Assembly (NCBI GenBank): GCA_032718475.1
Contig: JAUCBJ010008367.1
Coordinates: 43,201 to 107,200 of the forward strand
From: Nemertoderma westbladi
Lineage: Eukaryota > Animalia > Xenacoelomorpha
DNA: 64,000 bases
Reading direction: 5' to 3'
Both the position numbers and the translations under genes were made by a program. Positions 3,001-36,775 of this stretch are shown here, one piece after another (within the stretch, counting starts at the first letter, position 1; each line of letters opens with the position of its first letter). The notes below the pieces were generated by a model. It ran no database searches and was not told where the DNA came from. It saw nothing but the letters and a program-made list of their open reading frames with translations.

Positions 3001-6000
3001 AGTGCAAATACTCATCGGTCAAAACGCGCATGAAGCGCTCGAGACATTGGAGAAACGGCCTGCTCAACCGCAACCACTACAAGCTTATGCGGGAAGAACT
3101 AGAGTGGGTTGGTACTTTACTGGCCCTTCCCGTAGAACTCTCATGGAAAGATTACCGAAAGACCAGGTATATCAAGTAAGAGAATGGGAAGTCGAGGGCA
3201 GTGAGTTAGACGATCCAACTGAGGGAACACCATACTCCTCAGATAATGACGATGTCCACCAACTTTTCGACGAGGAGAATACCATCGATCTCCTTAAGGA
3301 AAACGAGACTTGGCAAAACCAAGTGAACTTATGTCAGCTCCTTCTTCCATCAGAACGAGACGACTATAACGACGAGCTTAATGACGTCATTGAACGTTAT
3401 AATGCCAAGACTCGGGATGAACACGCCGTACGATTCTTTACTCAAGAGGCTGTAGAGCCCAATTCCTACGATAAGGCCCTATCGTTAGAGGAAGAAAGAG
3501 CCAAGCAGATCCAAGAGACAACTACACGTTTTCTTAAAGATCAAGGTAGATATGAGATCAGTCTACCTTTCCGAAAGCGAGAACCAAAGTTCGTAAACAA
3601 CAGACCCTTGGCGGAGAAAAGAATTGCTCAACTACATCGACGCCTTACGGCAAATTCTTCAGCTAAAGAAATGTATCAAACGCAGTTGAAGAAATTTATT
3701 AGCAAGGGATATGCGGAGCTAGTACCGGAAGAAACACCTATAACTGAGAGAACGTATTATTTAACTCACCATTACGTTCCCAAACCCGGTAAACCCCATG
3801 AGGTACGAGTGGTGTTTGACGGCTCCGCCCTCTATATGGGCCAATCCCTTAATTCCAAATTGTTACCCGGACCCAACTTACTCCAATCCTTGTTGGGAAT
3901 ACTCTTAAGATTAAGACAATATTCAATTGCTTTCGCCTCAGATATAGAAGGCATGTTCTTACAAGTCAAGGCGCTGGATAGGGATCGAGATAGCCAACGA
4001 TTTCTGTGGTGGCCTGAAGGAGACCTCAACCAGAAACCGGTGGAGTACTGGATGACCATCCAGGCTTTTGGGATAATCTCAAGCCCTTCAAACGCCTGTT
4101 CAGTGGTGCGCACCACTGCGGATGACAACCGAGACGCCTTCTCTAAAGAGGTGATTGACAACATCAAGCGGGATATATACATGGACGACAATCTAAAGTC
4201 CCTTCCATCAGTCGAAGAAGCCATCGATGTCGCTAAAGGAACGGTAGAGTGCTTAAAAAGAGGTGGATTTCGATTAACTAAATTCACCAGCAACTCCCGT
4301 GAGTTTCTGGAGTCGATCCCGGTAGAAGATCGAGGAGCGAAAGACCTGGATCTAATAAAAGATGATCTCCCAGAAACTAAGACCCTTGGTTTGAAATGGG
4401 ACACAGAAAGAGATATCCTGTTTTTCCAACTAAAACAGCGAGATAATCCAGTTCGGACTAAATGGATTTGTTTAAGTATCCTGAGCACTTATTTCGATCC
4501 ATTGGGATTTATTAGCCCAGTTATATTGATTGCTCGGAGTTTAGTACAACAAATGTGGCTTGAAAACCACTCATGGGACGATCCACTTAAGGGAGAATTA
4601 TTAAAGAAGTGGATGAAATGGGAAGATTCTCTACCAGCCATCGAGAACTTTATAATTTCCCGTTCATATTTTGGTCATGTTCTCCCTACGTATTCCTATC
4701 AACTCCATGTGTTTGGAGACGCCAGCGATATGGGAATAGGTATAGTAGCCTACCTAAGGGTGGAAACTCCGGACGGAATCAAAGTCGCCTTGGTTACCTC
4801 TAAGGCATTGATAAACAATAAGTTGAAAGTTCCTCGAGCGGAGTTAAAGGCGGCTCTATACGCTACAGCCATCGGCCGGAATGTAACAGAAAAGATCGAC
4901 TATCCACTGGAGAAAACTGTCTATTGGACCGACGCTTTACTCGTGTTGGAGTATATAACCAATGAAGTCTGTCAGTTCAGCGTCTTCGTTACCAACAGAG
5001 TAGCCATTATACTCAGTCATACAATGATGGATCAATGGAGACATTGCCCCGGAACGATTAATCCAGCAGACATCGCCTCCAGGGGAGCAACTCCACAAGA
5101 ACTGGTAGACACTCCAGACTGGTTAGGTGGACCCGACTTCCTCTACAAAGAAGAAGAAGAATGGCCTCCTCATCTTACTACCACAGAGATTAGACAGGCC
5201 AAGGGAGCAGAGAAAGTCAAACGTAAAACTCGGGCGAGTAAATCGAAGTTATTCAAACCTATGGTAGATCTGTCTGTACTACATACTTCCGGAGACGACG
5301 CTTTGGATCAGAAACCCACAGCCACAAATAAGCTTGTTGTGGAAATCCGTGAGAAGGATTGGAAATCTGGAATACCAGACGTCTCGCAAGGACTCTCACC
5401 TCTTCTGCAGAGAGCGATACATCACTACAGTTCCTGGAATCGGCTCTGTAAGGCCATTACATATTTAAAGAGATGTTTTCACCATCACTACTCCGGGATG
5501 AAGACCAAAGGTGATACCGCTCCAATAACATCAGTGCAGGTCCATGTTATTAAAGATCTTCCCAAATATAAGATACCCGACAGGTTTCTGAAGGAGAAGA
5601 TCAGTTATCAGGAACATGAAGAAACCAACAAGCAGATGCTGAGACTCCTGCAATGCTATGAGGATTCCGATAAGTATTTCCTGTTGTTGAGAAATCCGCA
5701 GATACGCTTAAGGGATCGTTTCTCTAGCACAATGATAGATGGGTTGATATGTGTTGGAGGAAGATTAACGAATGCTCCATTATCCTTTGACACTAAGTTT
5801 CCCATACTCATTAGAAATCTTGAGATACCAGTCAAGATGATTGTAGATGTTCACAGCAAACTTTATCATGCTGGTAGAGAACGAGTTCTTAGCGAAATTC
5901 GAACTCGCTATTATTTTTATAAACCCCGTAGAGCTCTGAACCAAGTTCTTAGGAACTGCATACCCTGTAGGAAAGCATTCAGTAGGCCTTTAACACAGCG

Positions 6001-8658: not shown

Positions 8659-8699
8659 ATATATAAACTCATTATAATATTGATAAACTCATAGCAGAT

Positions 8700-11600
8700 A
8701 TGACTGAGTTGATAGAAGATGATCTTGGTATCAGAGAGCGATATACTCTACCTATACAAGCGTTTGTCGATAGCTTGATACGCGGCGACGCTGGTCCAAC
8801 TACTACGGAGGATGATGGTCGTTATATCGAACCGCCAATGTCCCAGGAGCAACTTACGCGTGAATTGGACTATCGAAAGTTCACCGCTCGCTATACGCAT
8901 CGTAATGGTACGTATATGGACTTCTTAACTACTGGCCATCCTATCGATTTACACGATACGGACGATGTAGATACCGAAAGGGAAATGGTTTTATTTAAAT
9001 ATCATACCCAGCGGAGTCGGAACGATAAACCGAGAATAGAACACGAGAACTCTATTCGAAACAGACTCGAAAGGGAAGACGTTGAAGAGCCAGATAAACG
9101 CAGTGACTTCAACGATTATCTGGAATTCCTGAGAGAGACATATCTCAATATTGCCAGCCAACAAAATCTCGAAACTCGATATCCTCAAGGTAAACATCAT
9201 GATCCTATGATAGAACTCAAACGACTCTATTTCACTATGATGTATCTTACCGCCGATCGACCGGTACCTGTCATCCCAGATAGCTTCGAACAGATGGAGG
9301 AATATTGTAAAACTGGAGAACGATCACCCGCGTTTCCCCTGCAGGACGTGCGTCTTTGGTATTACTGCGATGAATGCCCTAGACCCAATCAGCAAACGGA
9401 AAGACATAAACATCCGCGGAGACGTTGCGCTAAACACAGTTTTACCCGATATACTTATGGGAGTTTCGAGCGAAACCTGTTCGACGTATCCCCTACGGTC
9501 GCTCGACTCAAACGATCCTTGAATAAACCGATGATCAGAGTTCCGGAATACTCGGTCAGACCTCCTCATTCCTCAGTTAGACCTCAGACTCTTGATCCTA
9601 ATAGTATCACGGATCCTCCCGAACTGTACTCACTGTTCAAAGATCTAGTGTTACCCGAACAGTTGATCGGTGGCACTCCGGTAGTGGGCTCGCTAGATAT
9701 TCGCCAACCCTACCTAGCCGGATTAGGACGCGGTCATCTAATATCGCCGTTTAACCCATACAACCATCCCGGCTTCACCCTCGATCCAACCCGTTACGGA
9801 AGTCGAAGAGAGCGTCGTACGAAATGAGTTAGACGCTATTCAGCAGAAAATCGGAAAGGGAACTTACGATTGTTTGGAGAAACGTAAATTGCAACAACAA
9901 GTCCAAGCGGTGAAGGAATTAGCTTTACCTCAGTTCGATAGAGAAATACAAAATCTCGAGGAGGACATCGAACGTGGACGAACCTACTCTTTACAAGAGT
10001 TCCTAGATGAGCGTCTACAACAACAAGCGGAGGAAAATCAGCTCGAGGAGAGACATATAGAACTAGATGAGAGAGAAGAAGCAGCTTTAGTCCAACCCGA
10101 AGCTCAAATCCTTATGACGGATCTCTACTCTAAAACCATCCTTCATCCCTCGATGGTTCCCCATTTCGGAGACAAACTCTTTGCGACGGTACAACCCCAA
10201 CCGGTTGATATCAACCTAAGATCTCGAGATCTTATCGCTGACGCTCCCATGTTGCAGCATCCGCCCATCGAAGCCGCTCGTGTCGATGGTATACTCGTTG
10301 AACCTCCGGACAATAGAGCGGATCTTGTCCGTCGCATGGTACACGATGTTAACATACGCGCTAGACCTTTACCGGACTCGTTTTATGGGATCAAAGATCA
10401 CCCTTATTACGTCAATCTAACACAATATTACATGGTAAAACCGGAAGATCCTACACATAGTTTGAGGTTTCTACCACTAATAAATCCTCTCGATCTTGTC
10501 GAACTCGAACAACTGCAGAAACATCTGGATCAGTTAGTTAAAGTAAACTCATTTCGAAAACCATATAATGTTTCCAGAATAGAGAAAGAAACAATACCTC
10601 CGTATAATCTTGATGGATTCATCAAAACTCGTTTAGTACACTGGAATCTTGACGTGTTATTCGAGGAGGAAAGAATACAACGATATGGAGATGTGGAAAC
10701 ATATACTACGCAATATTTAAAGTATAGAGACCTACCTAATGCTAGCGAATGCGCTACCTTGTGGCATCCAGTGGGAATGACCCTCGAAAACGCCACTAAA
10801 GAGTGGAACAAGACTCTTAACGTTATCGAGATGTATGGAGTTGTCACTTACGACAACGAAGGTAGCGTTCCGGTTGGAGAACTGGGAACTACGCGGATGA
10901 TACACATACGAGGACTCACTGGTTCTACCCACGTATTTACTCGAGCGTGTTCCGATGTGATTGATTATTCTTTTGAAACTCTTACTGAGACACAAAAGAA
11001 ACTCCGACATGGACAATTCGAACTCGCGCAGCGTTACGTCATCGACACCGAGCGCAAACCGGCCATGTGTATCGATGGATCGATGTTACCCCAGCCCGTG
11101 CTCGAGATGTTGTTTAACGAAAGAATCCTTAAAATCGGCTCCACTGTTTATGGAGACCTACAAAACGACTTTCGGAATATGGAGAACATTCCATACCCTT
11201 TCGTTGATACTCAGCTGATTGCTCCCTGGGCAGAAGGCTGAGATTTCTTCCGCACTATGTATGCCAATACACCCAGCGGCATTACTAAAGTACAACGAAC
11301 CTCCATCGGACATCTTGCCTTTCAAGAATACGGATGGAATTTCAAGGTTGGAAATCCTATAAATTACCAACAAGTATATGGAGACCATTATTCTCGTTTA
11401 TACTTTGATGGACCATTGACCGCACCTGGCGCCGTGTATAGCTTTATGAGTGTTCCACTTCGTCCCTCCTTAGCTATATACACGATCTTTGAAAACGCAG
11501 CACTTGCCGGTTGGCTAGCCGATGTGTGCAGTCGTACCATACGCGCCCATCCCTTAATACTTGGAACCAAACTCGCCAAGTTAGATGAACACAATAAATT

Positions 11601-12954
11601 CATCCGCTTCGAATGTTTCAGGCGCTTTCTGACTCCGTTCCGTAACGTTGATAGTCAGTTCAAGGACCGCGCTCTGACCAAACTCAGCCTAAGAGACTCA
11701 GCTGCGGAGAAGCTAATCAGCGCGGGATTTGCTCTCTTTCAGGACGTTTGTATACAGAACTTACATTCATCTGTTATACAAAGACCCCGAATACCCACAG
11801 GTTATTCTGTCGTGGAAGTTCAGACAATGGGTCCGCTTGCGGAGACAGCCGCACCTACCTCAGCTATGCAATTGGAAGACGAACCAATATGCTTAGAATC
11901 TGAAGCGATCCAGCCTACAGCGCCCCGGAGCAGCGATAACGATTACGTCTTGGAGTGGTATCAAGGTCCACAATGTCTCACCGCATACGATTATCGACAC
12001 GCCAACTATGTTTCTCGAAAACGTTGTCGATTATGCGCATCGAGAGACCATTTCACCCCTATGGACTCAGACGTACCCTGCTCCTATTTCCACGAACAAC
12101 CGATGATGGAAATCTATTGTGCGTATTGCAGACTTAATAACTCGCATATTTTTGCAGTCTGCCCCCAATTTATGACTCAATGCCACCACTGTCAACTTAA
12201 AGGACATGCCAGTTATAATTGCCCCTTTAACCGCGATTTAGAAAGCGTAGATGAGATGATTACCCTGCGCTACATCCGAGCTTGGGAAGCGAACGTGGAT
12301 TTACATTGTGAGTCCCGCCATCGCTATTACCCTGGACGCTCTTACGAGGGAGTTTACACGTTCCATCCTTATTTATTCGCGTCTGTTGAACAAAAAACAC
12401 GCACACCGAGTTACGAACTAATGAAGCGTGTTGGTGAGTGTATTTCCACCAAATTTGTTCGAAAATATCTCAGGAACGTCAATCCTAACGATATTACTTC
12501 ATACCATTTGATCAATTTCATCCGTCAAGACTCTGAGTATGGCGATTTATTTATCAACTCGCACCCTGAGTTACAGGAAGTATCTCGACGGCCCTACGAA
12601 TATCGAGCCCGAGAACGCGAGCTGGAAAGAACCATTAAACCGAGGAAGTTTCTCACCACTCACGGTCCACCTACCGCCATTGTCCAGACGACCCGTCAAG
12701 GACCCGTAGGAGCTGCTGTCCTAAGACGCGCCCTAAAGGCCGTTAGACATCGCTCCACTGAAGTTGATATCGATCAACCAGGTACCTCGACCGGCGGATA
12801 CACCGATCGTAATCCTAAACCTTCTGATGCAATTGTATTGCACCCTTCACCCAGGAGTTACAGCCCTCCTAGTAAAGTGTCTCGCCCCAAAGAGAAAAGG
12901 ACTCTTGCTAGCCTCAAAAAACTGCGTAAACGCCGTCCGCGTAAGAAAGACTAA
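8700..12954 (+). pseudogene. Accessory ORF of the BEL element (~1,417 aa reconstructed): DEDDy 3'-5' exonuclease-like domain, three CCHC knuckles, basic C-terminal tail; one frameshift (~9780) and one in-frame TGA (11239-11241)
   Basis: ORFs 9874-11241 and 11257-12954 share a frame across a single TGA. Copy 2 reads through the 9780 junction (IQPVTEVEE.VVRN.LD), and the third-position substitution pattern switches frame there. Motifs: VVTYDNEG (10840-10863), LPQPVLEMLFNERILKIG...GD...FVDTQLIA, PLRPSLAIYTIFE; knuckles at 12025-12222; KKLRKRRPRKKD. Confidence 0.75.
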
Positions 12955-13032: not shown

Positions 13033-14212
13033 TGTAAAGGCTTTTGCGGAATTAGCCGGTTATTTTCCCCGTAAAGTACTCTGTAGTTGGTTTAACAGGC
13101 ATAAAAGGCCGTGTCCTTACTGTACTGGTGTTTTAGAGGACATAAAAGCCATTTCTTCTGTATGTGTACTTTAGCGGACATAATTAGCAATTCTATGACG
13201 CAATGCGCCGGATCCTCTTGAAACAGTGTAGCTACCATGACGACGGCTAACAGCTGATGCTGTACACGTGGAGCTTTTTCTTTGTTCTCTGTTCCTTCTT
13301 TGTTCGGTCGACCAATCAGAGCGTTTTTTGCCTCTGCGTTAGAGATTGTATATAGAAACTCGTGGAGTTGAGTCAGTATGTGATTTTGTCCACAGCCTAG
13401 AACACCGGCTTTGGAACCTCCGTGTTTCAGTCTTTAGCCCAACATTAGTAGGCTTAATTATAGAACGTATATCTGTTATCATATCAATTCATAACATAAA
13501 AAACGAACCATAACTCACATATCATATCAATTTATACCTTAACACTTGTACTGCTATTTACTGTCGGTTATTCATTATATTTGTTGATGGAATATTATAT
13601 TTGGAATACTGATAAATAATCAGACACCCCGATCTTCTTGATATACTAAAGGTTAGAGAGACCGGTTACATATAACGATTGCGACTTACATTAAGTGGTT
13701 TGAAGTGAATCTAATGCTATTTCATAGGCCCTACATGTATTGTCTGTTGTTCTCTTTATATGTGACTAAAATTAGTGAAGGTCGGCAGATCAGTGTGCAG
13801 CATTGTGCAGTATTGTGTATGATTGTGACTGATAACAAAGCATCTCCTAAAGAATGCGCCATATACGTGAATCTATAGCCATCCCGTTGTGTCTAGTTTA
13901 AGTCATAACTCTGTTTACATATTTAGAGCGCCACGTCCTAAAGGAACTGTTAATATTTCCCGAAAGTGAATAATATTTGTCAGAGATTATATATATTACG
14001 ATCAGTCGAATAATACAGTAGGCCTACCCCGCAATACGGTTAGGCTTCCGAATCCAGTCTCCCGGGTATATCCAGCGGGTGAATGATCGCGCATAGACTG
14101 GCTTCGGCTAATGTAGTGTATCAAATACTTGTCATAGGCTAAAGACGATCTATTATCTAGAAGACATCCCAATTTGGCAGGTTAAACTGCTAAAGGTCTG
14201 AAAGCGCGAACA
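13033..14212 (+). repeat. 3' LTR of BEL copy 1 (1180 bp)
   Basis: Starts TGTAAAGGC after the PPT and ends GCGCGAACA; homologous to 16262-17465 and 30916-32119 but clearly diverged from them. Confidence 0.92.
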
Positions 14213-14806: not shown

Positions 14807-16195
14807 TTACTACTACTACTAGGTCGAGCGAAATCGGACATTGGAAATGAGATCCTTCCAGGCTTCCCGATTCTCCATAGTTGTCGCAATTTCATTTCTC
14901 CCAAGTTCAGTATCCCTTTCAAGTTGATCTATATATGTTATGGCCGGTCGTCCACGACTACGCTTTCCATGAGTTGGTTGCCAGAGAAGTAGATCTGGTA
15001 TGACCTCGTCTTTACTTCACCAGCAGTGCCCACTGAATCTTAATCTGCGTTCACGGAGGGTGGTTGATACAGGTGGTATTGTACCCTAAAGCTTGGCGTT
15101 TGTCATGTGTTGTCTCCAGCTGATGTTTAGGGCTTCCCTTAGTAGTCTTGTGTAACAACCATCAATTCGTTGTTCAAATGATTTAGTCAGTGTTCAGGGG
15201 TCACCCCCGTATAAAAATACACTTTCCACTGTGGCTCGAAAGAATTAGTCTTCAGGTGCCTGGAGAGATCTGAGTTCCAGATGGTATCCATTTTTGATAG
15301 AGCTACCCAAGCCTTTGCTTTCCTAACTTCTATGTCCTTTTTGCTACTCTCTATCCATGATCCAAGGTACTGGAAGTCATCGACCTTCCTTAGTTGATTA
15401 TTATCAATGGTTGTCAAGTCAAGAATGCTTTCTTGAAGTCAACAAAAGTCATCAATGCGGGGAGATTCTTTGACTTAATTCCTTCAATCAGTCTCCGTAG
15501 TGCAAGTATCTGAGCTATTGTTGATCTACTTGGTCGAAATCCGTTTTGGCTCTTACGCAGTAGTTTCTCTATGTGAGCCCTAATCCTATATAGAATCATT
15601 TTATTGTATATTTTGGCAGCTACCATAAGCAGACAGATCCCACGATAGTTTGTTGGTATGCCGATGTCTCCTTTCTTGGGGAGAGGCTTTAGTTGACCTT
15701 TAGTCCAAATTGGTGGTGGCTCTCTCAAAAGGCGCAACTTTGCACAACTTTTCCGACCAGATACCTCATTTACAGTTTGCCAGGTAAGTCTTGATTGTTG
15801 CTGTATGTGAGCAGTTGTAATTGCTTCAGTTTTATCCTGTATGTACTTTTCCTGGCTGATGTTGTAGGTCAATTTAAGATCGTCCTTAGATCGTTTCTCA
15901 ACCTTGTTAATGTTTTCGGTTGTTGGTTGTTCGGTTTTAACTTTGTAGGCTATCTCAAGATCTTCTCTCTTACAAGTAACCTCAGAGTTTTGCCATGGCA
16001 CATACTGTTTTCGTTTGGGTTTCTGGGGGATATGCCTCTTAGCTGATTCCTTGTGGGCTGTTATTATATTCTGGTATATTGAATTGGTGGATTGGTCTTC
16101 ATCCATTGACTGAAGTGCTTCAAAGCGGTTTTGAACTTCTGCTGTATAAGCATCCTTTACAGCATTGTCAGTTCTGAGTTTCTCCCACTTATATT
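14807..16195 (-). mobile_element. RTE-like non-LTR retrotransposon fragment, internally deleted
   Basis: LPKKGD..PTNYRGICLL, QNGFRPSRST, FVDFKKAF and FQYLGSWI in minus-strand ORFs; (TAC)n tail at 14808-14821. Confidence 0.85.
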
Positions 16196-16261
16196 TAAAG
16201 GGGCACAATTTTGGTAAGCCGATATATTTCAGGCTCCCTAACGGGTCATATGCCGCACTAT

Positions 16262-17465
16262 TGTAAAGGCTTTTGCGGATATAACTAGTCATTTTCCCCG
16301 CAAAGTACTCTGTAGGTGTTTTAGCGGACATAAAAAGCCGTTTTTCTTACTGTGTAGGTGTTTTAGTGGACATAAAAAGCCATTTTTCTGTATGTGTACT
16401 TTAGCGGATATAACAAGCCATTTTATGCCGCAATACGCCAAAATACTCTTAATACAGTGTGGCTTAGATGACGAAATCTATCAGCTGATTTTGATGTCGA
16501 TGTGGAGCTTTCTTAACTCTCTTTGTTCAGCTCACTCGATCAATCAGAGCGATTTTCATTTTATTTGCACAGAAGCCTCCGGGAAATCGCGCAATGCATG
16601 ATGGTCTTTGTTTACCTTTTCCTGAGCCCAGAACATCGGCTTTGGAATTATTCTTAGTTTCAGACTTTAGCCAAACATTCGACGGCTTTGATTATAGGAA
16701 CGTATAACTGTTATCAGCAAACCACTCAAGTTACGCAAAACAGCCCATATCATACTATACATACCTTTCACCGCATTATTTTACTGCTATTTACTGTCGG
16801 TTATTAATTGTTATAAGTTGGTGGATATGTTGTTATATTTGGAGAATATCGATAAATAATCATAAAACCCCAATCTTCTTGATATACTGAAGGTAAGAGG
16901 GACCAGTTACCTGTAGCAACTGCGACTTACATTTATAGTGGTTTTGGAGTGAATTGAATGCTATTTCATAATCCCTACATGTGTCAGTTGCTATTCTCCT
17001 TATATATGATCAAATTTAGTGAAGGTCGGCAGATCAGTGTGCAGCAGTGTGCGGTAGTGTACATGAGTGTGACAGATAACAAAGCATTTCCTAAAGAATG
17101 CGCTTTATACGAAAATCATTAGCCATCCCGTTGTGTTTAGTGTAAGTCATAACTCTGTTTACATACTTAGAGCGCCACGTCCTAAAGGAACTGTTAATAT
17201 TTCCCGAAAGTAAATAATATTTGTCAGAGATTATATATTAACGATCAATCGAATAGTACAGTAAGTCTACACCGCAATAAGTTCAGAGCCTCCGAATCCA
17301 GTCTCCCTTAACTGTGGGTGAATGGTCGCGCATAGGCTGGCTTCGGCTAATGTAACTTTATATCTTATATGCAACAAATACTTGTTATAGGCTAAAGTCG
17401 ATTTATAAACTAGAAGACACCTAAAATTAGCGGGTTAAACTGCTAAAGGTCTAAAAGCGCGAACA
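16262..17465 (+). repeat. 5' LTR of BEL copy 2
   Basis: Direct repeat of 30916-32119; four ~40-50-bp-spaced GCGGAYATAA-type subrepeats in the first 160 bp. Confidence 0.96.
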
Positions 17466-17476
17466 ATAACAGTTAT
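17466..17476 (+). promoter_or_regulatory. Non-tRNA primer-binding-site candidate (ATAACAGTTAT), complementary to LTR 16704-16714
   Basis: No TGG-starting tRNA PBS follows the LTR; the exact reverse complement ATAACTGTTAT is present within the LTR. Confidence 0.5.
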
Positions 17477-19068
17477 TGATTTTTTTCCTTTATTGCACAG
17501 TAGACAATAAATACAGTTTACTATTGTTCTGGTAAGAACAATAACAGTTATTCAGGTTTCTTTATTGAAACGTAGGCAATAAAGTCGAAAGTACCGGTCT
17601 ACCGGTAACCTGTAGGCCTGACTGCCTAACCACCCGAACCGGTACTTACAGCAGTATAGGTACAGCAGTATTATTAGATTTTGATAATTATATACCGGTA
17701 GGTCTTGATATTTAATCAGGGACGGCCGCCCTGGTTTTTTATTGGGATTTTACTTATTTCTGTCAGTTTTATTTATCTGTAAGTTAATATTGAGCAGAAG
17801 GCATGTAAGCCTGCTCAGATTGTACAAATAGTTTGTAGGCTGGATTGTTGTCTGGCTGTTGTCAGGTCCGAAGAGATTGCAGTGTGTGTAGAGTGTATGT
17901 CCGATAAAATACTAGTTAGGAAGGTAGGGGCATCCAGTGTTGTAAGGTAAATCCCCTCCGAAAGAATAAGTCGTACTACTCGGTTAGAACGCATACTAAC
18001 TAACCATTTCGGAGTCTGCATATACTGTAGTTTATTTAGGCTTGATAGTAGTCTGTCAGCATTTGGTTTGTATTTTGTTTGTGTAGTCTGTACGGGTAGC
18101 GTAATATTTATTATTCAGAGTTTATGCGATTATTCGCAACATACACCACCCCAAGTTTATTCCTACAGTAATTGTGCTTGTTATACATACCGTTATAGTT
18201 AAATTAACCCCGGTACTACATCAAGGCTGTTTGGCGTAAGTAAAGACTGGTGATTTTATGCTCTAGTCACTCCAGCAGATACCGTGGTTCTTTTAGCTGT
18301 ACAAGTATTTTTAACTGCTGGTTATTTGTTGTATAAGTACTTGTACCTAATTTAGGGTTTAGTGTACAGTGCTTTCCGAAGGAAATTAGTGTGTAGGCAG
18401 TATATTTGTGTTGTAAAGTGGTTAATAGGCACGTTAGCTATGGTAGGCTGCGGTAATTAACTTCTAGGTAGGGACATTCCGGGTACATAATGTAGTACTT
18501 ATAGAGCTGTAAAGCTAGAGACTATAAGTCGTCAGACGGTGGTATTTTCTTATCTAGACAATGCAATATATTTACTACTGCTTTATTATTTTCAAATACC
18601 GTAGTTTCCTGTCCGTTTGTAATAACCAGAAATTTCTAACCCCTTGTTAGGCTGGTTTGTAGATTTCCTGTAAAATTACCCTAAAATTTGTACGTGTGAT
18701 TTTTTTTGTGTTTATTTAGAGATTGTAATCTCACCCCTTAATTGTACGTAATTTGTAGTAATAAGTAACTTAGTAAATTAGAATTATTTGTTTTAGTGTC
18801 CAATAAGTAGCACTCCACTGAGAGCGTTCAGCTTCTGTGAAGTGACTCCTTACCTAGAAATAATAACATTTATTTCAAATATTGTAACAAAACCCATTAA
18901 ACGGGTATATATATATTATAAATCAACTCAAACCGATTTATAAAATAGTAGGCCTGTCATCCATCAATTAGGTCTTAATATCAGTTGGACTACTGCTTAA
19001 ATAACGGTAATAAAGTAACGTAAAGTAACCCTAAAATTCAGAAATTCAGTTATTCTAAAATAATTGAC

Positions 19069-19370
19069 ATACCGGTATTTACGATAGGCTTATTATATTT
19101 ATTTCTATAAATTTAAGCTGAAATTATATACCGGTATTCTGTAATTAATTCTAGTCTATAATTATACTTATATATGCTATAATGTAAGCTGTATACCGGT
19201 ATTCACGGTAGGCTTATTATATATTTATATATATTTGCGCTGAAATTATATACCGGTATTCTGTGACAAGCCCTAGTCTGTAATAATACATATATATATA
19301 CTATAAGTGTATACCGGTATTCTAATATATTGTATATATATCACATTACACTGAGTAACGATATCGGTAA
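19069..19370. repeat. ~60-bp-period array with palindromic ATACCGGTAT core in the BEL 5' leader
   Basis: Cores at 19069, 19128, 19193, 19250 and 19311, plus a degenerate one at 19361; spacers alternate A/B, giving a ~122-bp dimer. Confidence 0.85.
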
Positions 19371-19458
19371 TTAATTACTAGGCTTATAGTTGATACTGAA
19401 TTACTAGACTTGCTTTAACTGTAGTTCTAGCAGTAGGCATTCAACTGTACAAACAAAC

Positions 19459-22400
19459 ATGGCTGACATAAAGCAAAACCTGTCAGACAGTCTCCTAGAT
19501 ACAACAATCTGTGATCCAGATAGGAGTGCGGAACGTTTGAGACCGAAGTTCAACTCCCCTCCTACTGTAAGAAAGGTCATCCCTCCAGTAGTAGTATCAG
19601 ACCCTAGGCTAGTCAAACACCGTAGGTCCATCATAGGCACTCGGCCTCAAGTCAAGCGGGACCAAGAGGCAGCTGTTAAACAACAGCAACACTCGAGCTG
19701 ATAACTTATTTCTCAGCAGCCCGATAGCTCCAGTAGTTCACATACTGTAGAGTTGACACCCGAGCGTGGAGCAAAGATGGCAGAAGCAGTTTATTCGGAT
19801 CCACTTCTCATTCTTCCTGAAGCTGTACTTACTAGAGTATTAATTGTGATGGAGGAACATCAAATGGATTGGGCGAGAAGTAAGCGATCGACCAAGGACA
19901 GTTATGCGGGATACACGAAGGAGGAACTGAAGTCTATTGTTGAGACGCAATGGAATTTCCCCGTCCCGGACTCCCGTTTAACTTATCGGAAGCTGCCTGG
20001 GAGGACTTATACAGGATGGGAGTGGTAAGGGACACTAGAGTTCCAGCTGTGTGGAAGAGGTCGGCAGCAGGATATGTACAGGGATTCTTCAGCTCTTTGG
20101 AGCGATTAGAGGAACAACTGTTTCAACAACCCCAAGGACCTCAAGAGCAGGGAGAGCTGCTTTATCAAGTTCGAGAACGTATCCTAAGAATCAGACTAAT
20201 CCTATCGGCCTTTGAGGAAGCCTCGAAAAGAAGCCAAGACACGTCGTTGCAAGTTGCCGTAAAGACTTGGTTCCAGCGGGTGGGTCTCAAAGTTCAAGGA
20301 ACGGCCCAGTGGAAAATTCAGCTGGCTGAGCGCTCAACCCACGGAGAATCAACAGACGCTACCTTTTCTCAAGTGGAAAGCGAAGCGACATTGGAGAAAC
20401 CTCAGAAGAAGGACGCTATTGACATCTATCTGTTGGACTATCAACGATTTATTGGTGACAAAGAGTTGAGGAGACGGCTGGCTGGACTTCACCCTACTAG
20501 TGAAGGAGCCAAATTTGTGTTAGACGCATTAGATGCGGAAATGTTAGTCGCAGAGCAGGCTAAATTTGATGAAAGCATCCTCCTCGCTAGGGAACAGGAA
20601 GAACAATTAAAGAAAAAACGGATAGAAGACAGAAAGGTAGCAACAGCGGCAGTGGCAGAAGTTCAAAGAAAGGCGGCAGCTGCAGCGGCAGCGGCAGAAG
20701 CTGAAAGAAAAGTGGCAGCGGCAGAGGCAGAGGCTGAGGCAGCGGCAGCGGCTGAGGCAGCGGAAAGAAAAGCGGCAGCTGCAACGGCAGAAGCTGAAAG
20801 AAAGGTAGCAGCGGCAGAAGCGGAAAGAAAGGCGGCAGAGGCAGTGGTAGAAGCAGAACGGAAAGCATCTGAAGAGACAATCCAACTAGAGTTGGAAAAT
20901 CTTCAAGAGAAGCAAGATTACATCAATAAACAAAGAACAGCTAAGTATATGCAGATGATAAGTCGATCTACTCCCAAGAGACAGGGATTTACATCATCTG
21001 TTGAAGGTGATACCACAGATCCTGAAGGCGGAGGAAATAGATCTCGTTCCAGCGGACGTAGAAGAACGCCTCACCATCAGAAATTGCCTAATTTGCCCCC
21101 AGCTGTGAGAAGGCAACTAGCTAGTGCAGACTTAGGTAGTACAGAACCCACAGACCAAATTATTAGAATAGAAAGACTCCCTACTATAGTGGATGAGCCT
21201 GAAATAATTAGGCCTGTTCTCGAAACCACCCCCTCTGTGATGGAGACCCCTGTCCTTCCAGAACCTAACTCTAAATTCCCTTTGCACAGTACTAAACTAC
21301 CTGTATCCAGTAGGACAGTTCCTCAGACAACTCCGGTCCTGGACGCCGAGCGAGACATTAACAATTTGTCACCCGTCGTCCCTCGTCTACCCGCTACTAT
21401 GTTGGCGGCTCCCGCTTCGGCGGTAGAGTGGGTGGATGAGCGACGGCGGGGGATGGATATTCTCCTCAGGCAGATGGAGGAGAATCAGGCACGCTCCTCC
21501 CAGCAGGTCTGAGAGTTGGAGGGGACTGTTCAACAGTTAAGGGGAACAGTAAGAGAGAGTAGGTTAGAATTGCAGGAAGTGCAGCAGAGTATCGCGTTAG
21601 AACGCGATAAGTTAGTAAATCTACAAAAGGGTATACCACCACCCTCTGTAATAATGTGTCCACCTGTTATGTCTGTAATATTTCATGCGCAAGTTGTGGA
21701 GCCTACACGCATCTATACTGCTAGCGAAGTAGAAACTCCTATAATAAACCCCATTAAGGGTAACGATAAACCTGTTGATAATGATATTCCATATAGACCT
21801 GATAATAATCCGAGAAATTTATATACCGATAACTCGATATTAAATAATACGATGGCCCAAGAAAGTTTTACGTGTCAAATGGCTAGAACCGAAGCCCGTC
21901 AAGCGGTAAAGGTGGGAGAGATCGTCAAGTTCAATGGAGATGAGATGAAATGGTTACCTTTTAATGAATATTATAAAGATAACATACAGAACTCTGTGCT
22001 ATCTAACGGAGAGAAACTTAGATTCCTCATCGAGTGCTTGGAAGGATCTCCCAAGTTAATGGCGTTAAAGTTTATTGGACATCCAGATGGATTAAGACAA
22101 GTTTGGGATACACTAAACATCAGGTATGGTAATTGGAATAACATAGCTAGGTATTTGTATGCGAAATTGGTAGCGCCCCGAAAGTTTCTTAGCAGTGGGA
22201 TTATAGAATTTTCCGATGAGATCCAGGAGATTTGTAGACAATTAGATTGGCTAGGTAAGTCTCATGAATATCAGAGTTCTATGGTTATTGGAGCTGTAGC
22301 ATCTACCTTGCCAAAGGGTGGAGTGGGTACTCGTTGGGACAAAAGAGTTCTATATATGATGGAACAACAACGAAGAGACCCTACCATGGCTGATCTCATG

Positions 22401-25400
22401 TCATTCTTGGATGGAGAGGTAAAATTACAGCTCCTAAAGCAGTCCAGAAAGAAGACACCGGAAAATAAGGTAAGTGAGATACCCGTTTCTAGGAGAAAGG
22501 TAACACCAGTGTGTTATACAGACGACGGCGAAAGCCAGACCTCTCAAGAGGAGAGCAACGGGAAAGACACCGAAAGATCTTACTATGTCAACAAAACACC
22601 AAAGGATGTAAGTAAATTTAAGTCTCGAACCAGTGACAGGAGAGAACAGACAACAAAAACTCCCCCCACGTCTCCTAAGAGAATTCATGAAAGAAAGCCT
22701 GAGGAGAGAACAAGTGTGCACAACACTACCCAAGGTAAAGTAAGTAACATCAAACCAAAATGTGCGTTGTGCGACGGGCCCCACCGTTTAAGTGTGTGTG
22801 ATGAATTCTTAAAGAAATCCCTAAAAGATAGACGTGAAGTCATGTGGGATAAGCGGTTGTGTTATAATTGCCTCAGACAAGGACACCAACGGCGAACCTG
22901 TTACTCCGACGCAAGGTGTGCTAAGTGCGGCGCGAAACATCATATCTTGTTGCATACCGAATTCGAAAGAAACAGCCCGAGTCAGGTAAGTGAGTCCGAA
23001 CTACATGTCCAATTCAGTGATGTGAACGACACTGACCACAGTTCTGAGATGGAAGGATTCTACACGGATGAATTCTCCGACGAAAACGAATCCTGTTATC
23101 TAATAAACACTGCAGTGTATCGAGCACTTACGTATGAGACTGAAACCGAGAGTGAGCTTCCCCTAACTATTCCTGACCGACACCCATCTTGGAAAGCGCC
23201 AACTTCCAACGTAGGAATCCGAGAATTTCCCGTAGTGCAGTTGAGAGTCCATGGGTTAAAAAGGAGCTATATAGTGAATGCCCTCCTCGACTCCGGCAGC
23301 ACAGGAACATTCATCGACAAAGAACTAGCCGAAGACATCTTTGCTGGACAACCCAAGTTCGGAACTAAGTTGAACCTTTCAGGAATTATGCAGGTTTGGA
23401 AATCTACAGTAGCTACCGACTACTATGTAGGCGCGTTGTCCACCCCCCAGGATGAACTAGGAGAACACAGTATAAGGTCAGTAAAAATGGTGGTGATAAA
23501 GAACTTCGCTACCAGCCAAGTGGAACCTTATAACTGGGATGAAGACGATTTCACCCAGCAGCATGAGATACCTAGATTCAACACCGACTACCCAGGGGTA
23601 CAAATACTCATCGGCCAAAATGCGCATGAGGCGCTTGAGACATTAGAGAAACGGCCTGCTCAACCGCAACCATTGCAAACCTATGCGGGAAGAACTAGAG
23701 TAGGTTGGTACTTTACCGGACCTTCCCGTAGAACTCTCATGGAAAGGCTACCTAAAGAACAGGTCTACCAGGTGAGTGAATGGGAAGAGGAAATCAGTGA
23801 GGGAGACGACACACCTGAGGGAACACCATACTCCTCAGATAATGACGATATACATCAACTATTCGACGAGGAGAATACCATCGACCTCCTTACGGAAAAT
23901 GAAACTTGGCAAAACCAAGTGAACCTGTGTCACCTCATCCATCCAGCGGGACAAGTCGATTACAACGACGAACTGAATGAAGTGATAGATTGTTACAATG
24001 CGAAGACTCGCGATGAACACGCCGTATGATTCTTTACTCAAGAGGCTGTAGAGCCCAATTCCTACGATAAGGCCCTATCGGTAGAAGAGGAAAGAGCCAA
24101 GCAGATACAGGAAACGACTACCCGTTTTCTTAAAGATCAAGGTAGGTATGAGATTGGTCTGCCTTTCCGACGGCGAGAACCCAATTTTATAAACAACAGA
24201 CCCTTGGCGGAGAAGAGAATTGCGCAACTACATCGACGCCTTATGGCAAATGCTTCAGCTAAGGAGATGTACAAGACCCAGCTGAAGAAATTCATTGACA
24301 AGGGATATGCGGAGCGAGTACCGGAAGAAACACCCATAACTGAGAGAACGTACTATTTAACACATCATTACGTTCCCAAACCCAGTAAACCCAACGAAGT
24401 CCGGGTAGTATTTGACGGCTCCGCCCTCTCACATGGGCCAATCCCTTAACTCCGAGTTGTTGCCAGGACCCAACTTACTCCAATCCTTGTTGGGAATACT
24501 CTTAAGATTACGGCAATATTCGATCGCTTTCGCCTCCGATATAGAAGGCATGTTCTTACAAGTTAAGGCGCTGGATAAGGATCGGGACAGCCTACGATTT
24601 CTGTGGTGGCCTGAAGGAGACCTCAACCAGAAACCGGTGGAGTACTGGATGACCATCCAGGCTTTTGGGATCATCTCGAGCCCTTCAAACGCCTGCTCAG
24701 TAGTGCGCACCACTGCTGATGACAACCGGGACGCCTTCTCCAAAGAGGTTATCGACAACATCAAACGGGATATATACATGGACGACAATTTAAAGTCCCT
24801 CCCATCGGTGGAAGAAGCCATTGATGTCGCCAAAGGAACGGTAGAGTGCTTGAAAAGAGGTGGATTTCGATTAACTAAATTCACCAGTAACTCCCGTGAA
24901 TTTCTGGAATCGATCCCGGTAGAAGACCGAGGAGTTAAAGATCTAGACCTTATCAAGGACGATCTTCCAGAAACTAAGACGCTTGGTTTGAAATGGGACA
25001 CAGAGAGAGATATCCTGTTTTTCCAGCTAAAACAGCGAGATAATCCAGTTCGGACTAAACGGATTTGTCTAAGTATCCTGAGCACTTATTTCGATCCATT
25101 GGGATTTATTAGCCCAGTTATATTGATTGCTCGGAGTTTAGTACAACAAATGTGGCTTGAAAACCACTCATGGGACGATCCGCTTAAGGGAGAACTATTA
25201 AAGAAGTGGATGAAATGGGAAGATTCTCTACCATCCATCGAGAACTTTATAATTTCCCGTTCATATTTTGGTCATGTTCTCCCCACGTATTCCTATCAAC
25301 TCCATGTGTTTGGAGACGCCAGCGATATGGGAATAGGTATAGTAGCCTACCTGAGAGTTGAAACTCCGGATGGAATTATGGTCGCCTTGGTTACCTCTAA

Positions 25401-27660
25401 GGCCTTGATAAACAACAAGTTGAAAGTTCCTCGAGCGGAGTTCAAAGCGGCTCTATACGCTACAGCCATCGGCCGGAATGTAACAGAACAGATCGACTAT
25501 CCACTGGAGAAAACTGTCTATTGGACCGATGCTTTACTCGTGTTGGAGTATATAACCAATGAAGTCTGTCAGTTCAGCGTCTTCGTTACCAACAGAGTAG
25601 CCATTATACTTAGTCGCACGAAGATAGATCAATGGAGACATTGCCCTGGGACGATTAATCCAGCCGACATCGCCTCCAGGGGAGCAACTCCACAAGAACT
25701 GATAGATACTCCAGACTGGTTAGGTGGACCCGACTTCCTAAGCAAGGAAGAGGATGAATGGCCTCCTCATCTTACTACAGCGGAGATTAGACAAGCCAAG
25801 GGAGCGGAGAAAGTCAAACCTAAAACCCGGGCGAGTAAATCGAAGTTATTTAAACCCGTGATAGATCTGTCTGTACTACACACTTCCGGAGACGACGCTT
25901 TGGATCCAAAATCCCCAGCCACAAATAAGTCTGTTGTGGAAATCAGAGAGAGAGATTGGAAATCTGGAACACCAGAAGTCTCACAAGGACTCTCACCTCT
26001 CCTGCAGAGAGCGATACATCACTATAGCTCCTGGAATCGGCTTTGTAAGGCCGTTGCTTATTTAAAGCGATGTTTTCATCATCACTACTCCAGGATGAAG
26101 ATCGCTAGTGATACCGCCCCACTGACATCTGCGCAGGTCCATGTTGTTAAAGATCTTCCCAAATACAAGATATCAGACAGATTTCTGAAGGAGAGGATCA
26201 GTTACCAGGAGCATGAAGAAATAAATAAGCAGATACTGAGACTCCTGCAATGCTATGAGGATTCCGATAAGTATTTCCTGTTGTTGAGAAATCCACAGAT
26301 GCGCTTAAGGGATCGTTTCTCTAGCACAATGATAGATGGGTTAATACGCATTGGAGGAAGACTAACTAATGCTCCATTATCCTTTGACACTAAGTTTCCC
26401 ATACTCATTAGAAATCTTGAAATACAAATCAAGATGATTGTAGATGTTCACAGTAAGCTTTACCATGCTGGTAGAGAACGAGTTCTTAGCGAAATTCGAA
26501 CTCGCTATTATTTTCATAAACCCCGTAGAGCTCTGAACCAAGTTCTTAGGAACTGCATACCCTGTAGGAAAGCATTCAGTAGGCCTTTAACACAGCGAGA
26601 GGCAGAATTACCTAGGGAACGAGTAAGCTTCTATGAACCACCCTTCACAAATACCGGTGTGGATTTATTTGGCCCTATTGAAGTATATCGTGCTAAGACT
26701 ATAGTCAAGAGATGGTGTGTCATCTTTGTCTGTATGACTTGTAGAGCTATCCATCTCGATATGGTGAACGATCTATCTACCAACAGCTTCATACTGAGCT
26801 TACGCCGACAGATCGCTCGCTTTGGAACTAGTAACACGATGAGATCTGATAAGGGAACGAACTTCATTGGTGCCAACAATGAAATCAAGGCTTACGTCAA
26901 AGATTGGAACCAAAGACAGGTGGACGATCAGCTAAGGGTAACAGCGTCTAGCTGGACCTTCAACGCCACCGATGCCCCTTGGTGGGGAGGAAGTTGGGAG
27001 AGATTAATCAGAAGCGTGAAGACCGCATTTCACTTTATAGTGCCGTGCTGTGCGTATCTCACCGACGAACTTTTGCGGACGTTAATGGAGGAAATCGCCG
27101 CCTATCTCAACGAGAGACCGCTTATGCCAGTCTCATCGAGTCCCGATTCCCTGGAAGCGCTAACACCCGCGCACTTCCTACTGAAGAAACCTGTAGCCAT
27201 GCTCCCACGATCGGAAATCACGGACGGAGACGAATACTGCCGGCAAACTTGGCAACTTATGCAGTTGTTATCCCGTCGTTTCGCTGACCATTTCGAAAAA
27301 CATTATCTGCCTACACTACAACTTCGAACTAAGTGGTTTGCGCAGCAAGAAAACGTCAGCGCCGGAGACATGGTCCTTATCGTGGAGTCAGATCTTCCAC
27401 GTAAGCGGTGGCAGACAGGTCGTATCATCGAGACTCATATCTCAGATGACGGTTTGGTGCGATCGGTAGAACTCGTCGTCATGCGACGTAACTTTAAGAA
27501 ACCTGGAATTGTGTTCGAAACACAACAACTCAATCGCCCAGTTGGTCGTTTATGTTTACTGGAAAGAGACAGAGAACTCTCCGGAAACTATGGAAGGCAA
27601 GATACTCTTCCCACGACCACCTCCCTAATCCAACCAACATCCAGGGACTCCCCAACGTAA
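19459..27660 (+). pseudogene. BEL/Pao gag-pol of copy 2, disrupted
   Basis: Fragments 19459-19701, 19753-20028, 19950-21512, 21516-24029, 24204-24449 and 24412-27660; from ~20500 on they are colinear with copy 1. Stops at 19699/19702, 21510 and 24027; frameshifts at ~19950 and ~24430. Confidence 0.93.
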
Positions 27661-29322: not shown

Positions 29323-29363
29323 ATTATAACTAATTATAATATTGATAAACTCATATAGCAGCT

Positions 29364-30837
29364 ATGACTGAGTTGATAGAAGATGATCTTGGTATCAAGG
29401 AGCGATATACTCTACCGTTGCAAGCGTTTGTTGATAGCTTAATTCGCGGCGACGCTAGTCAACCTACTACGGAGGACGAAGGCCGTTATATCGAACCGCC
29501 AATGTCAAAGGAACAACTCACGCGTGAATTGGACTATAGAAAATTCACCGCTCGCTATACGCATCGTAATGGTACGCATATAGACTTCTTAACTACTGGT
29601 CATCCTATCGATTTACACGATACGGATGATGTCGACACCGAAAGGGAAATGGTCCTATTTAAATATCATACCCAGCGGAGTCGGAACGATAAACTGAGAA
29701 TCGAATGCGAAAATTCTATTCGAAATCGACTCGAAAGAGAAGACGTTAAAGAACCGGATAAACGCAGTGACTCCAACGTATATTTGGAATTCTTGAGAGA
29801 AACATTATAAAACTGAAGAAAGATCACCCGCGTTTCCCCTACAAGACGTGCGTCTTTGGTATTATCGCGATGAATGCCCAAGACCCAACCAACAAACGGA
29901 AAGACGTAAACATCCGCGGAGACGTTGCTCTAAACACAGTTTTACTCGCTATATTTACGAGAGTTTCGAGCGAAACTTGTCCGATGTATCACCTACGCTC
30001 GCTCGACTCAAACGATCCTTAAATAAACCTATGATCAGAGTTCCGGAATACTCGGTCAGGCCTCCTCACTCCCTGGTGAGACCTCAGACTCTTGATCCTA
30101 ATAGTATGACGGATCCTCCCGAACTGTACTCACTGTTTAAAGATCTAGTGTTACCCGAACTTTTAGTCGGTGGCACTCCGGTTGTGGGCTCCCTAAATAT
30201 TCGCCCATCTTACCTCGCCGGATTGGGACGCGGACATATATATCGCCATTCAACCGTATCATCGTCCCGGTTTAACCCGATACAACCTGTCACCGAGGTG
30301 GAGGAGAGAGTTGTACGAAACGCGTTGGACACTATTCGTCAAAAGATCGGAAAAGGAACCTACAATTGTTTAGCGAAACGTAAATTGCAGCAGCAAGTCC
30401 AAGCGGTAAACGAATTAGCTTTATCACAGTTCGATCAGGAAATCCAGAATCTCTAAGAAGATATCGAACTTGGACGACTCTACTTTCTGCAAGAGTTTTG
30501 GACGAATGCTTTCAACAACAAGCGGAGGAAAATCAGCTCGAGGAGAAGCATATCGATTCCGATAGAGCCCGAGAACCCGTCAGGGACCAGTAAGAGCTGC
30601 TGTCTTAAAACGCGCTCTCAAGGTTGTTCGACCTCGTTCCACTGAGGTTGATACCGATCAACGGATACCTCGACTGGCGGATACACCGACCATAATCCTA
30701 AACCTTCCAATGCAATTGTATTGCACCCTTCACCCAGGAGTTATAGCCCTCCTAGTAAAGTGGCTCGCCCCAAAGAGAAAAGGACTCTTGCTAGCCTCAA
30801 AAAACTGCGTAAATGCCGTCCACGCAAGAAAGACTAA
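29364..30837 (+). pseudogene. Internally deleted accessory ORF of copy 2 (lacks exonuclease and knuckles)
   Basis: Matches copy 1 at 8700-~9140, ~9303-~10060, ~12601-12615 and ~12691-12954; about 2.8 kb is missing. Confidence 0.9.
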
Positions 30838-30915
30838 CTGTTTAGAGTATTTTTATATTTTAGAAACTGTGATTTTTTATATTTTATAGAATTAAATCCC
30901 ATTTTCTGGGAGCGG

Positions 30916-32119
30916 TGTAAAGGCTTTTGCGGATATAACTAGTCATTTTCCCCACAAAGTACTCTGTAGGTATTTTAGCGGACATAAAAAGCCGTTTTTC
31001 TTACTGTGTAGGTGTTTTAGTGGACATAAAAAGCCATTTTTCTGTATGTGTACTTTAGCGGACATAACAAGCCATTTTATGCCGCAATACGCCAAAATAC
31101 TCTTAATACAGTGTGGCTTAGATGACGAAATCTATCAGCTGATTTTGATGTCGATGTGGAGCTTTCGTAACTCTCTTTGTTCAGCTCACTTGACCAATCA
31201 GAGCGATTTTCATTTTATTTGCACAGAAGCCTCCGGGAAATCGCGCAATGCATGACGGTCTTTGTTTACCTTTTCCTGAGCCCAGAACATCGGCTTTGGA
31301 ATTATTCTTAGTTTCAGACTTTAGCCAAACATTCGACGGCTTTGATTATAGGAACGTATAACTGTTATCAGCAAACCACTAAAGTTACGCAAAACAGCCC
31401 ATATCATACTATACATACCTTTCACCGCATTATTTTACTGCTATTTACTGTCGGTTATTAATTGTTATAAGTTGGTGGATATGTTGTTATATTTGGAGAA
31501 TATCGATAAATAATCATAAAACCCCAATCTTCTTGATATACTGAAGGTAAGAGGGACCAGTTACCTGTAGCAACTGCGACTTACATTTATAGTGGTTTTG
31601 GAGTGAATTGAATGCTATTTCATAATCCCTACATGTGTCAGTTACTATTCTCCTTATATATGATCAAATTTAGTGAAGGTCGGCAGATCAGTGTGCAGCA
31701 GTGTGCGGAAGTGTACATGAGTGTGACAGATAACAAAGCATTTCCTAAAGAATGCGCTTTATACGAAAATCATTAGCCATCCCGTTGTGTTTAGTGTAAG
31801 TCATAACTCTGTTTACATACTTAGAGCGCCACGTCCTAAAGGAACTGTTAATATTTCCCGAAAGTAAATAATATTTGTCAGAGATTATATATTAACGATC
31901 AATCGAATAGTACAGTAAGTCTACACCGCAATAAGGTCAGAGCCTCCGAATCCAGTCTCCCTTAACTGTGGGTGAATGGTCGCGCATAGGCTGGCTTCGG
32001 CTAATGTTACTTTATATCTTATATGCATCAAATACTTGTTATAGGCTAAAGTCGATTTATAAACTAGAAGACACCTAAAATTAGCGGGTTAAACTGCTAA
32101 AGGTCTAAAAGTGCGAACA
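30916..32119 (+). repeat. 3' LTR of BEL copy 2
   Basis: TG...CA, follows PPT CTGGGAGCGG, ~99% identical to the 5' LTR. Confidence 0.96.
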
Positions 32120-32279
32120 ACTACTGTAGCTGATTTCTCATTTATATCTGATGTTAACACGTTTGGCAAAATTAAGCAAGATTTCTGTGATAAAAAATAG
32201 ATGTGAAAATTATCGAAGTCTTAAAAGCGCAAACAGTTGCCTAATTAAAAAATGGACTTTAGTTCATTGTTTTTCATCA

Positions 32280-33170
32280 CGATTAAAGGTTCGATTATTT
32301 AGAGCAGCAGTAGTTCCAGTACTCCTCTATGGGAGTCCATGCTGGGCTCTAACTGCTGTGGACACTAGATCTCTGGATGGCATACTCACAAGAATTCTAC
32401 GTCGGGTTCACTGTGTCAAGTACAATGAAGACATCTCCAATCAGCCTCTATACAACATTGAAGGTGTTCAATTAATCTCCCATAGCTTGACACTTTAACG
32501 GAACCGCCTTCCTTTGCAGGACATTGCTTTCGCCGTGAGGACCAGCCAGTTCATAATCTTGTACTTTGGCGTCCTCATGGAGTGAGTAAGCATGGTGGGC
32601 AGTCCATGACTCCCTTGAGACGCCTCTTTAAAGGTGACTGGCCTTGAAAATGCGGATAATTACGCGCGAGAGACATAGGGGATAGGGAGTTGTGGTGGTG
32701 CAACTTTCTTGATTAGCCGGCATAGCCTTCGTAATGCACGCTGCACGATGCCAATTGTGGATTACAGGGTGGTGGCAAAAATATTTTTGTTGAAGCATAG
32801 CATCTCAATGTACAGCTTCAATGAAGAAGGCCGATTATTATAGTAAGTAGTGGTAGTAGTAATATCCTAAGCGAAACCGGAAACAGACTTGGCTTTGTAT
32901 CTGAGGAGACCAAATCTCTGGATGGGACTTATACAAGAATGCTACGTCGGGTTCACTGTGTGGAGTTCAATCCGATCCTCCAATCAGATACTATATAACA
33001 TTAAAGGTGTTACATTCGTCCCTCAAGCTTTGATAGTTGAACAGAGCCGCCTCCACTTCACAGGACATTACTTTCGCCGTGAGGACCAGCTTATGCGGAT
33101 CTTGTATTTTGGTAGTTTCAGGTCGGCTAGAGTAAGCATGGTGAGCAGCCCTTGACATTCTTGAGACGCT
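32280..33170 (+). mobile_element. Two adjacent RTE-like 3' fragments (same family as 57690-59151)
   Basis: KVRLFRAAVVPVLLYGSPCWAL motif; AGT/TAG-rich tail at ~32841-32861; a second degenerate copy at ~32895-33170. Confidence 0.8.
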
Positions 33171-36730: not shown

Positions 36731-36775
36731 GGGGAAACGGTTTGTGTGCCAGTGGACGTTTCCCCAATGGTATAA
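36718..36775 (+). promoter_or_regulatory. -1 programmed ribosomal frameshift signal (G GGA AAC plus H-type pseudoknot)
   Basis: Slippery heptamer 36718-36724 in gag phase; 6-nt spacer; stem 36731-36739/36757-36765; loop TGTGCCA can pair with downstream TGGTATA; pol is in the -1 frame. Confidence 0.85.

Follow-up and report, generated by a model that had tools for sequence, protein, structure and literature searches.

The question raised by this locus is how a BEL/Pao element that lacks a recognizable tRNA site primes its reverse transcription. A TGG at the start of a primer-binding site (PBS) is the complement of the CCA end of a tRNA, and this trinucleotide is missing directly after the 5' LTR of the complete element in the window, the whole stretch of 64,000 nucleotides analysed here. 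The ICTV profile describes BEL/Pao replication as poorly understood and as primed by host tRNA (PMC8742986). A preliminary description of the window proposed instead that the primer is supplied by the LTR, as in the retrotransposon Tf1, in which the RNA's first 11 bases anneal to the PBS and RNase H cleaves between bases 11 and 12 (passages of PMC7175516). Judged from the sequence, it is quite probable that the element primes reverse transcription with its own RNA, although most related families appear to obtain the primer by a route different from that of Tf1.

Architecture of the element and its primer-binding site

Two copies of one BEL/Pao family lie in the window, of which copy 2 is complete and spans 15.9 kb; copy 1 extends beyond the left edge. 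Their main features are the following.

13033..14212, + strand: 3' LTR of copy 1, 78% identical to the copy 2 LTR, with the primer variant ATATCTGTTAT at 13469-13479
16257..16261, + strand: left target-site duplication ACTAT (5 bp; right counterpart ACTAC at 32120-32124, one mismatch)
16262..17465, + strand: 5' LTR of copy 2, 1204 bp, TG..CA
16704..16714, + strand: candidate self-primer, exact complement of the PBS (3' LTR counterpart at 31358-31368)
17466..17476, + strand: PBS ATAACAGTTAT, abutting the 5' LTR, without TGG
19944..27660, + strand: copy 2 Gag-Pol, spread over three stop-bounded frames (DUF1759, Peptidase_A17, Integrase_H2C2, DUF5641)
30908..30915, + strand: polypurine tract (PPT) GGGAGCGG, abutting the 3' LTR
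30916..32119, + strand: 3' LTR of copy 2

The element is a BEL/Pao retrotransposon (Belpaoviridae), filed as such by its proteins and not by its PBS. Pfam identifies Pao-type domains in the order Gag-RT/RH-IN in both copies, and the top protein matches, 32-36% identical and all of BEL/Pao type, belong to elements of marine invertebrates and fish. Two LTRs, a target duplication and a PPT, as expected of BEL/Pao, are present in copy 2, while the PBS for tRNA-Arg or tRNA-Gly that the ICTV lists as characteristic is absent from it, no TGG being found past the LTR. Copy 2 is young, its two LTRs differing 14 times over 1204 bp. Position 17465 is set as the LTR end by the 3' LTR, which diverges past the same CA, and by the 5-bp target duplication with its single mismatch. 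ARAGORN detected no tRNA genes in the whole window, Rfam returned only two weak bacterial sRNA matches, far under the cut-off, on 16262-19943, and neither LTR contains an AATAAA or ATTAAA poly(A) signal. The family is abundant, with a summed contig depth of 10^4-10^6 versus about 100-270 at the unique flank, values that do not represent copy number. The exact LTR pattern had no match in the metagenome contigs, and the viral contigs scanned held no relatives of the element.

Other features were observed in the window. Three to four tandem repeats of 38-49 nt each occupy 16270-16427 in U3, and copy 2 sits within an RT-bearing repeat of the minus strand (15414-16261). An extra reading frame of ~1,450 codons lies 3' of the integrase in copy 1 (8667-12954, in three stop-bounded pieces); copy 2 is without most of it and keeps remnants at 29349-30556. 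These extra ORFs matched nothing in Pfam or PDB and have no hydrophobic 19-mer above 1.8, so that they do not encode an obvious envelope protein. A second LTR element (35560-40068) has identical 272-bp LTRs that end in TA..AA and not TG..CA, a 4-bp duplication (CAAC) and a PPT; the site past its LTR also lacks TGG and has no LTR complement longer than 5 nt. At 52498-53736 there is an intron-less ORF for a Cys-loop ligand-gated ion channel, 26-37% identical to its matches, and a search for relatives of this host gene yielded no close one.

As the preliminary description reported, the 11 nt following the 5' LTR do not begin with TGG and match the reverse complement of 16704-16714 exactly, without extending to a twelfth nucleotide. 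Its reading of copy 1, with ATATCTGTTAT at 13469-13479, is borne out as well, together with its caution that the 11-mer is AT-rich and nearly palindromic. The 3' base of the candidate primer pairs with the first base past the terminal CA, so extension would begin precisely at the LTR end. The window element combines a PBS complementary to the LTR with the absence of a tRNA site, one of the traits of Tf1-like self-priming as a mechanism. When the LTR was shuffled at the dinucleotide level, the exact 11-mer occurred in 28 of 20,000 cases (59 of 20,000 in either orientation). Among 13,414 internal 11-mers, five have a complement in the LTR, one of them being the second copy of the site, and the AT-rich subset contributes two in 1,416. 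When offsets were allowed, control sites matched contiguously in 2/300 cases, and in 10/300 or 7/100 once spliced joints were also allowed. Two other candidates were discarded: no splice joint within the window element outdoes the contiguous 11 nt, and the TGG at 17530 lies 64 nt from the LTR end, which excludes it as a PBS.

Leader modules, family variants and the proposed start of the transcript

The leader contains a duplicated module and several predicted structures.

16663..16672, + strand: helix arm A, which precedes the candidate primer and shows one compensatory change between copies
17326..17331, + strand: weak partner of the U5 end (17457-17462), possibly a second duplex
17390..17399, + strand: helix arm A', complement of 16663-16672
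17489..17511, + strand: hairpin of module 1, 7-bp stem, 3' of the PBS (sequence and folding)
17522..17543, + strand: local hairpin TATTGTTC / GAACAATA, occupying the start of module 2 (probability 0.84-0.91)
17536..17584, + strand: module 2, a repeat of LTR end, PBS (17541-17551) and hairpin, with the variant T>A at 17548

The repeat of the PBS noticed in the preliminary description exists, one nucleotide downstream of where it was placed (17541-17551, not 17540-17550), and belongs to a 75-nt tandem module comprising the LTR end, the site and the hairpin. The same description proposed that TATTGTTC, which is indeed found at 17522-17529, pairs with the LTR end. This pairing is not sustained by folding, where it has a probability of 0.000 in all six spans; in every one of them TATTGTTC pairs with 17536-43 of module 2. 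Module 2 may perhaps provide a spare PBS or, acting as a decoy, hold TATTGTTC off the real site, a suggestion that we make tentatively.

Variation within the family was studied by aligning contigs of four runs on 17375-17600 and listing variants of at least 3%, with alleles expressed as summed contig depths. Runs X1 and X3 are two samples of two studies, X1 being possibly the source of the window; X4 does not cover positions past 17470, and X5 is only presumed to be RNA. Inside the 11-mer just two variants reach 3%, T>A at 17548 (position 8) and A>T at 17550 (4-5%). The former is carried by 9 contigs in X1 (3,610 of 15,044 depth, 24%) and by 6 in X3 (3,189 of 9,834, 32%), is the larger of the two listed among 33 possible changes, and yields ATAACAGATAT. 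This is the very sequence that had been predicted, ahead of these data, for the PBS of copy 1 from its LTR variant, an agreement expected by chance about once in 33, and it restores pairing with the copy 1 LTR. The prediction of covariation was therefore realized in its letters, ATAACAGATAT being the largest variant of the 11-mer, but not in its location, since the change is seen at 17548 instead of 17473 and is unlinked to copy 1: nothing in the contigs joins T>A to the LTR change in one molecule.

Position 8 is likewise A in loose ends behind 17469 in X3 and X5. No variant row was listed at 17473 itself, where few contigs enter the variable T-run; as those that do have a depth of 2,000-3,600 versus a bin of 30,000-40,000, a variant could drop below the threshold there. 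Single-module forms also occur in the family, as indicated by joints from 17474/17476 to 17557-17559 and by loose ends before 17536 that match the LTR end, and the PBSs of these forms may have been placed on module 2. The change at position 4 expected of a direct repeat has no row among the listed variants of the 11-mer. Family sequence varies directly past 17476, the predicted duplex boundary, and no variant rows fall in 17433-17481 or 17500-17547, versus 15 in 17406-17432.

The folding calculations are nested, so pseudoknots cannot appear in them. The PBS-primer duplex is part of the minimum-energy fold of RNA 16704-17620 (probability 0.85), and its probability is at most 0.003 in the other five of six spans, in which the RNA starts at 16626 or 16662 or reaches 18300. 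The duplex is weak (-10.1 kcal/mol); the PBS can pair with itself (-5.0 kcal/mol) and folds as a small hairpin in several spans. The region 17430-17620 folds better than 198 of 200 shuffles. Flanking duplexes of the Tf1 type are weak: a leader duplex was equalled in 35/300 shuffles, and the partner of the U5 end in 20/300 and 19/300. There is also an inverted repeat (14/15) between 16731-16745, right after the primer in the LTR, and 18225-18239 in the leader, with a predicted pairing of 0.90 in RNA 16704-18300.

A start of transcription at 16704, which would place the primer at the 5' end of the RNA, is favoured by the pyrimidine-purine step at 16703/16704, by a CCAAT box about 160 nt upstream and by the duplex boundary at 17476. 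The CCAAT box is intact in the 3' LTR and in copy 1 (13312) and altered in the 5' LTR (16540). Two observations speak against this start: no canonical TATA is present 30 nt upstream, and a covarying helix of 10 bp has its 5' arm upstream of 16704. This helix, A/A' (13430-13439 and 14137-14146 in copy 1), is the only perfect helix of at least 8 bp common to both LTRs (6/2,000 column shuffles), and it crosses the primer duplex as a pseudoknot. Arm A begins at a splice-acceptor-like TTTCAG in both copies, and the copy 1 variant of arm A' is not listed at 3% in the family contigs. As the 5' arm precedes 16704, the helix requires that the RNA start earlier or, given a long R, that it form at the 3' end of the transcript. 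A Tf1-style primer at the very 5' end of the RNA is given a little short of an even chance.

Primers probably assembled across introns in related families

A metagenome scan recovered 80 BEL/Pao loci with 37-45% identity, 33 of them with a flanking direct repeat. The LTR end could be set within the locus in nine loci, which represent eight families (L035 and L038 are the same), and in a ninth family, L012, it was set through L011. L016 and L052 were omitted because they diverge at non-CA ends, and in the remaining loci the contig stops inside the repeat. The ends of L010 and L074 were shifted by hand by 1-2 nt to CA, and L046 ends in TA.

None of the nine families has TGG directly past the LTR; L062 has one after a single base and also a complement. 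A Watson-Crick complement of 10-15 nt between PBS and LTR is found in all nine distinct families with a fixed LTR end, contiguous in L044 and formed only across a GT..AG intron in the other eight. With offset 0 the relatives gave no clean complement, and the offsets were widened after that test, to 0-3, 0-4 and, for L012, 0-6. At offsets 0-4, 8/8 families show a complement (seven across GT..AG introns), versus 0-1/100 of controls given the same freedom. For L012 these offsets give only 8 nt (21/100 controls); at offset 5, reached by widening after its sequence had been inspected, 11 nt pair across GTGAGT..TTTCAG (2/200 controls). The splice donor is GTAAGT in four families, and the acceptors are pyrimidine-rich. 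Four families share one primer sequence and the other five differ, so that the pairing is retained although the letters change. In a blind scan of eight loci whose LTR end is not fixed, the control L008 was recovered and L012 missed, with suggestive results for L050 and L007 and unclear ones for four. In L007, whose LTR end is not independently fixed, 806-815 and 1003-1012 form a possible second contiguous zero-offset primer match of 10 nt.

The window element is intron-less and, set beside these nine families, the only one with a site abutting the LTR: the gap between LTR and site is 2-5 nt in 9/9 relatives versus 0, and primer and PBS are separated by about 60-240 nt in the relatives measured versus about 750. 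In a quick tree of 41 rows (19 of the 80 loci, 20 proteins and the window copies, with no named reference elements), both copies lie on a long branch within a clade of 30 rows (SH-aLRT 98); the clade contains all these loci and is separate from the insect elements. This aquatic-animal BEL/Pao clade may perhaps be Sinbad-like. With the caveat that the relatives are about 40% identical and the window branch is long, the window element is likely an intron-less form of a trait of this clade, whose primer appears in most cases to be put together by splicing.

Alternative explanations and comparison with known systems

The facts to be accounted for are the complement and its position, the family variant that matches, and, in relatives, the same pairing with other letters; readings other than self-priming were weighed against them. 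The 11-mer could be a palindromic binding site for a transcription factor (TAACNG/CNGTTA, which we take to be Myb- or Ovo-like) repeated in LTR and leader, with priming by another route. The near-palindrome, its three copies in 850 bp, the occurrence of CNGTTA four times in the LTR and seven in the leader, and the similar flanks of the LTR copy and module 2 in the direct sense all agree with such a site. However, it does not predict a position-8 variant in the inverted sense or the missing position-4 row, the copy 1 LTR variant disrupts one half-site, the relatives hold the pairing with unrelated letters (eight only across an intron), and the element would be left without a primer site; we thus regard it as quite unlikely. 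Chance in AT-rich DNA might be invoked on the grounds that 7/100 random sites match equally well when splicing is allowed and that the duplex is unstable in five of six folds, but it is extremely improbable in view of the 28/20,000 shuffles, the variant found as predicted and the 9/9 relatives.

Priming by a host RNA, such as a tRNA half, a tRNA fragment or another small RNA, with the LTR match incidental or regulatory, would fit a family that the ICTV profile describes as tRNA-primed (PMC8742986), and half-tRNA primers exist in copia lineages, according to passages of PMC6317226. It is nevertheless very unlikely, as TGG is missing up to 4 nt past the LTR end, the single one nearby being that 64 nt off at 17530, ATAAC occurs in no tRNA-end or PBS cell of the accessible part of the PMC13524379 supplement (three matches, all element names), and a fixed primer would not tolerate a variant at 24-32% or the unrelated sites of the relatives. 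A real pairing that serves RNA folding, dimer formation (through the near-palindrome of two RNAs) or packaging, with priming elsewhere, could draw on the self-pairing and small hairpins of the PBS, the one- and two-module forms of the family and the second covarying helix. Such a role is highly improbable, since the pairing is located exactly where priming must begin for this LTR end, and the sites of the relatives are not all palindromic and require a splice joint.

Self-priming thus remains the preferred reading. The stretch 16704-16714 would fold back onto the PBS, and cleavage at the 3' side of the primer, probably by the RNase H of the element as in Tf1, would release an end from which synthesis would proceed into the LTR. 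A cut at the 3' side would provide a usable end whether or not the primer is the 5' end of the RNA, and, as the primer of the relatives is an exon joint, a 5'-terminal primer need not be the rule. The idea of an LTR-derived primer has gained from the predicted variant and the nine families. In most relatives the primer is split by an intron, unlike the arrangement of Tf1. For the clade as a whole, the reading that we favour on balance is that it abandoned tRNA priming, in a third independent origin of self-priming in which host splicing of an LTR intron builds the primer, and that intron-less offshoots such as the window element carry it ready-made, in a blunt Tf1-like form with a duplicated site.

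If true, self-priming would have a further independent origin, in an animal-only superfamily, and the absence of primer sites for which LTR finders discard such elements would be explained. In addition, the elements might escape silencing by tRNA fragments, and relatives with an intron would depend on host splicing to start reverse transcription. Among the titles and abstract openings listed by full-text searches of the open literature, none dealt with self-priming or splice-built primers in BEL/Pao, and neither PBS nor tRNA is treated in the available parts of PMC554778 and PMC3118150.

Self-priming is on record for Tf1/sushi, while for Tcn1 and TAR it is a prediction (passages of PMC6317226, PMC4600332, PMC3601003 and PMC6934838). 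Like the window element, Tf1/Tf2 of S. pombe, Tj1 of S. japonicus and the Tf1/sushi group of Ty3/gypsy chromoviruses have no tRNA site and an 11-nt PBS that adjoins the 5' LTR and is complementary to an LTR stretch (passages of PMC7175516 and PMC4600332). In contrast to Tf1, the window element has BEL/Pao proteins and no chromodomain match, so it was rejected as a member of Tf1/sushi and would work like Tf1 without belonging to it. It also differs in the roughly 750 nt between primer and PBS and in the duplicated PBS module, and its BEL/Pao relatives differ in their intron-split primer. The three duplexes of the Tf1 'pretzel' structure, as given in passages of PMC10085805, are not clearly present in it. 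In the TAR lineage (Houba, Osr-1) of plant Ty1/copia and in the Tcn1 clade, self-priming was likewise predicted from PBS-LTR complementarity (passages of PMC6317226), but these belong to other superfamilies and to plant and fungal hosts. With the aquatic-animal clade of Belpaoviridae the window element shares Peptidase_A17, DUF1759, DUF5641, an H2C2 integrase, TG..CA LTRs and a PPT. It departs from the ICTV profile of the family (PMC8742986), in which the PBS has 18 nt and serves tRNA-Arg or tRNA-Gly and genomes measure 4.2-10 kb, in having no such PBS and in its 15.9 kb. Self-priming in this element would be a variant form of an established mechanism, within a family whose priming is attributed to tRNA.
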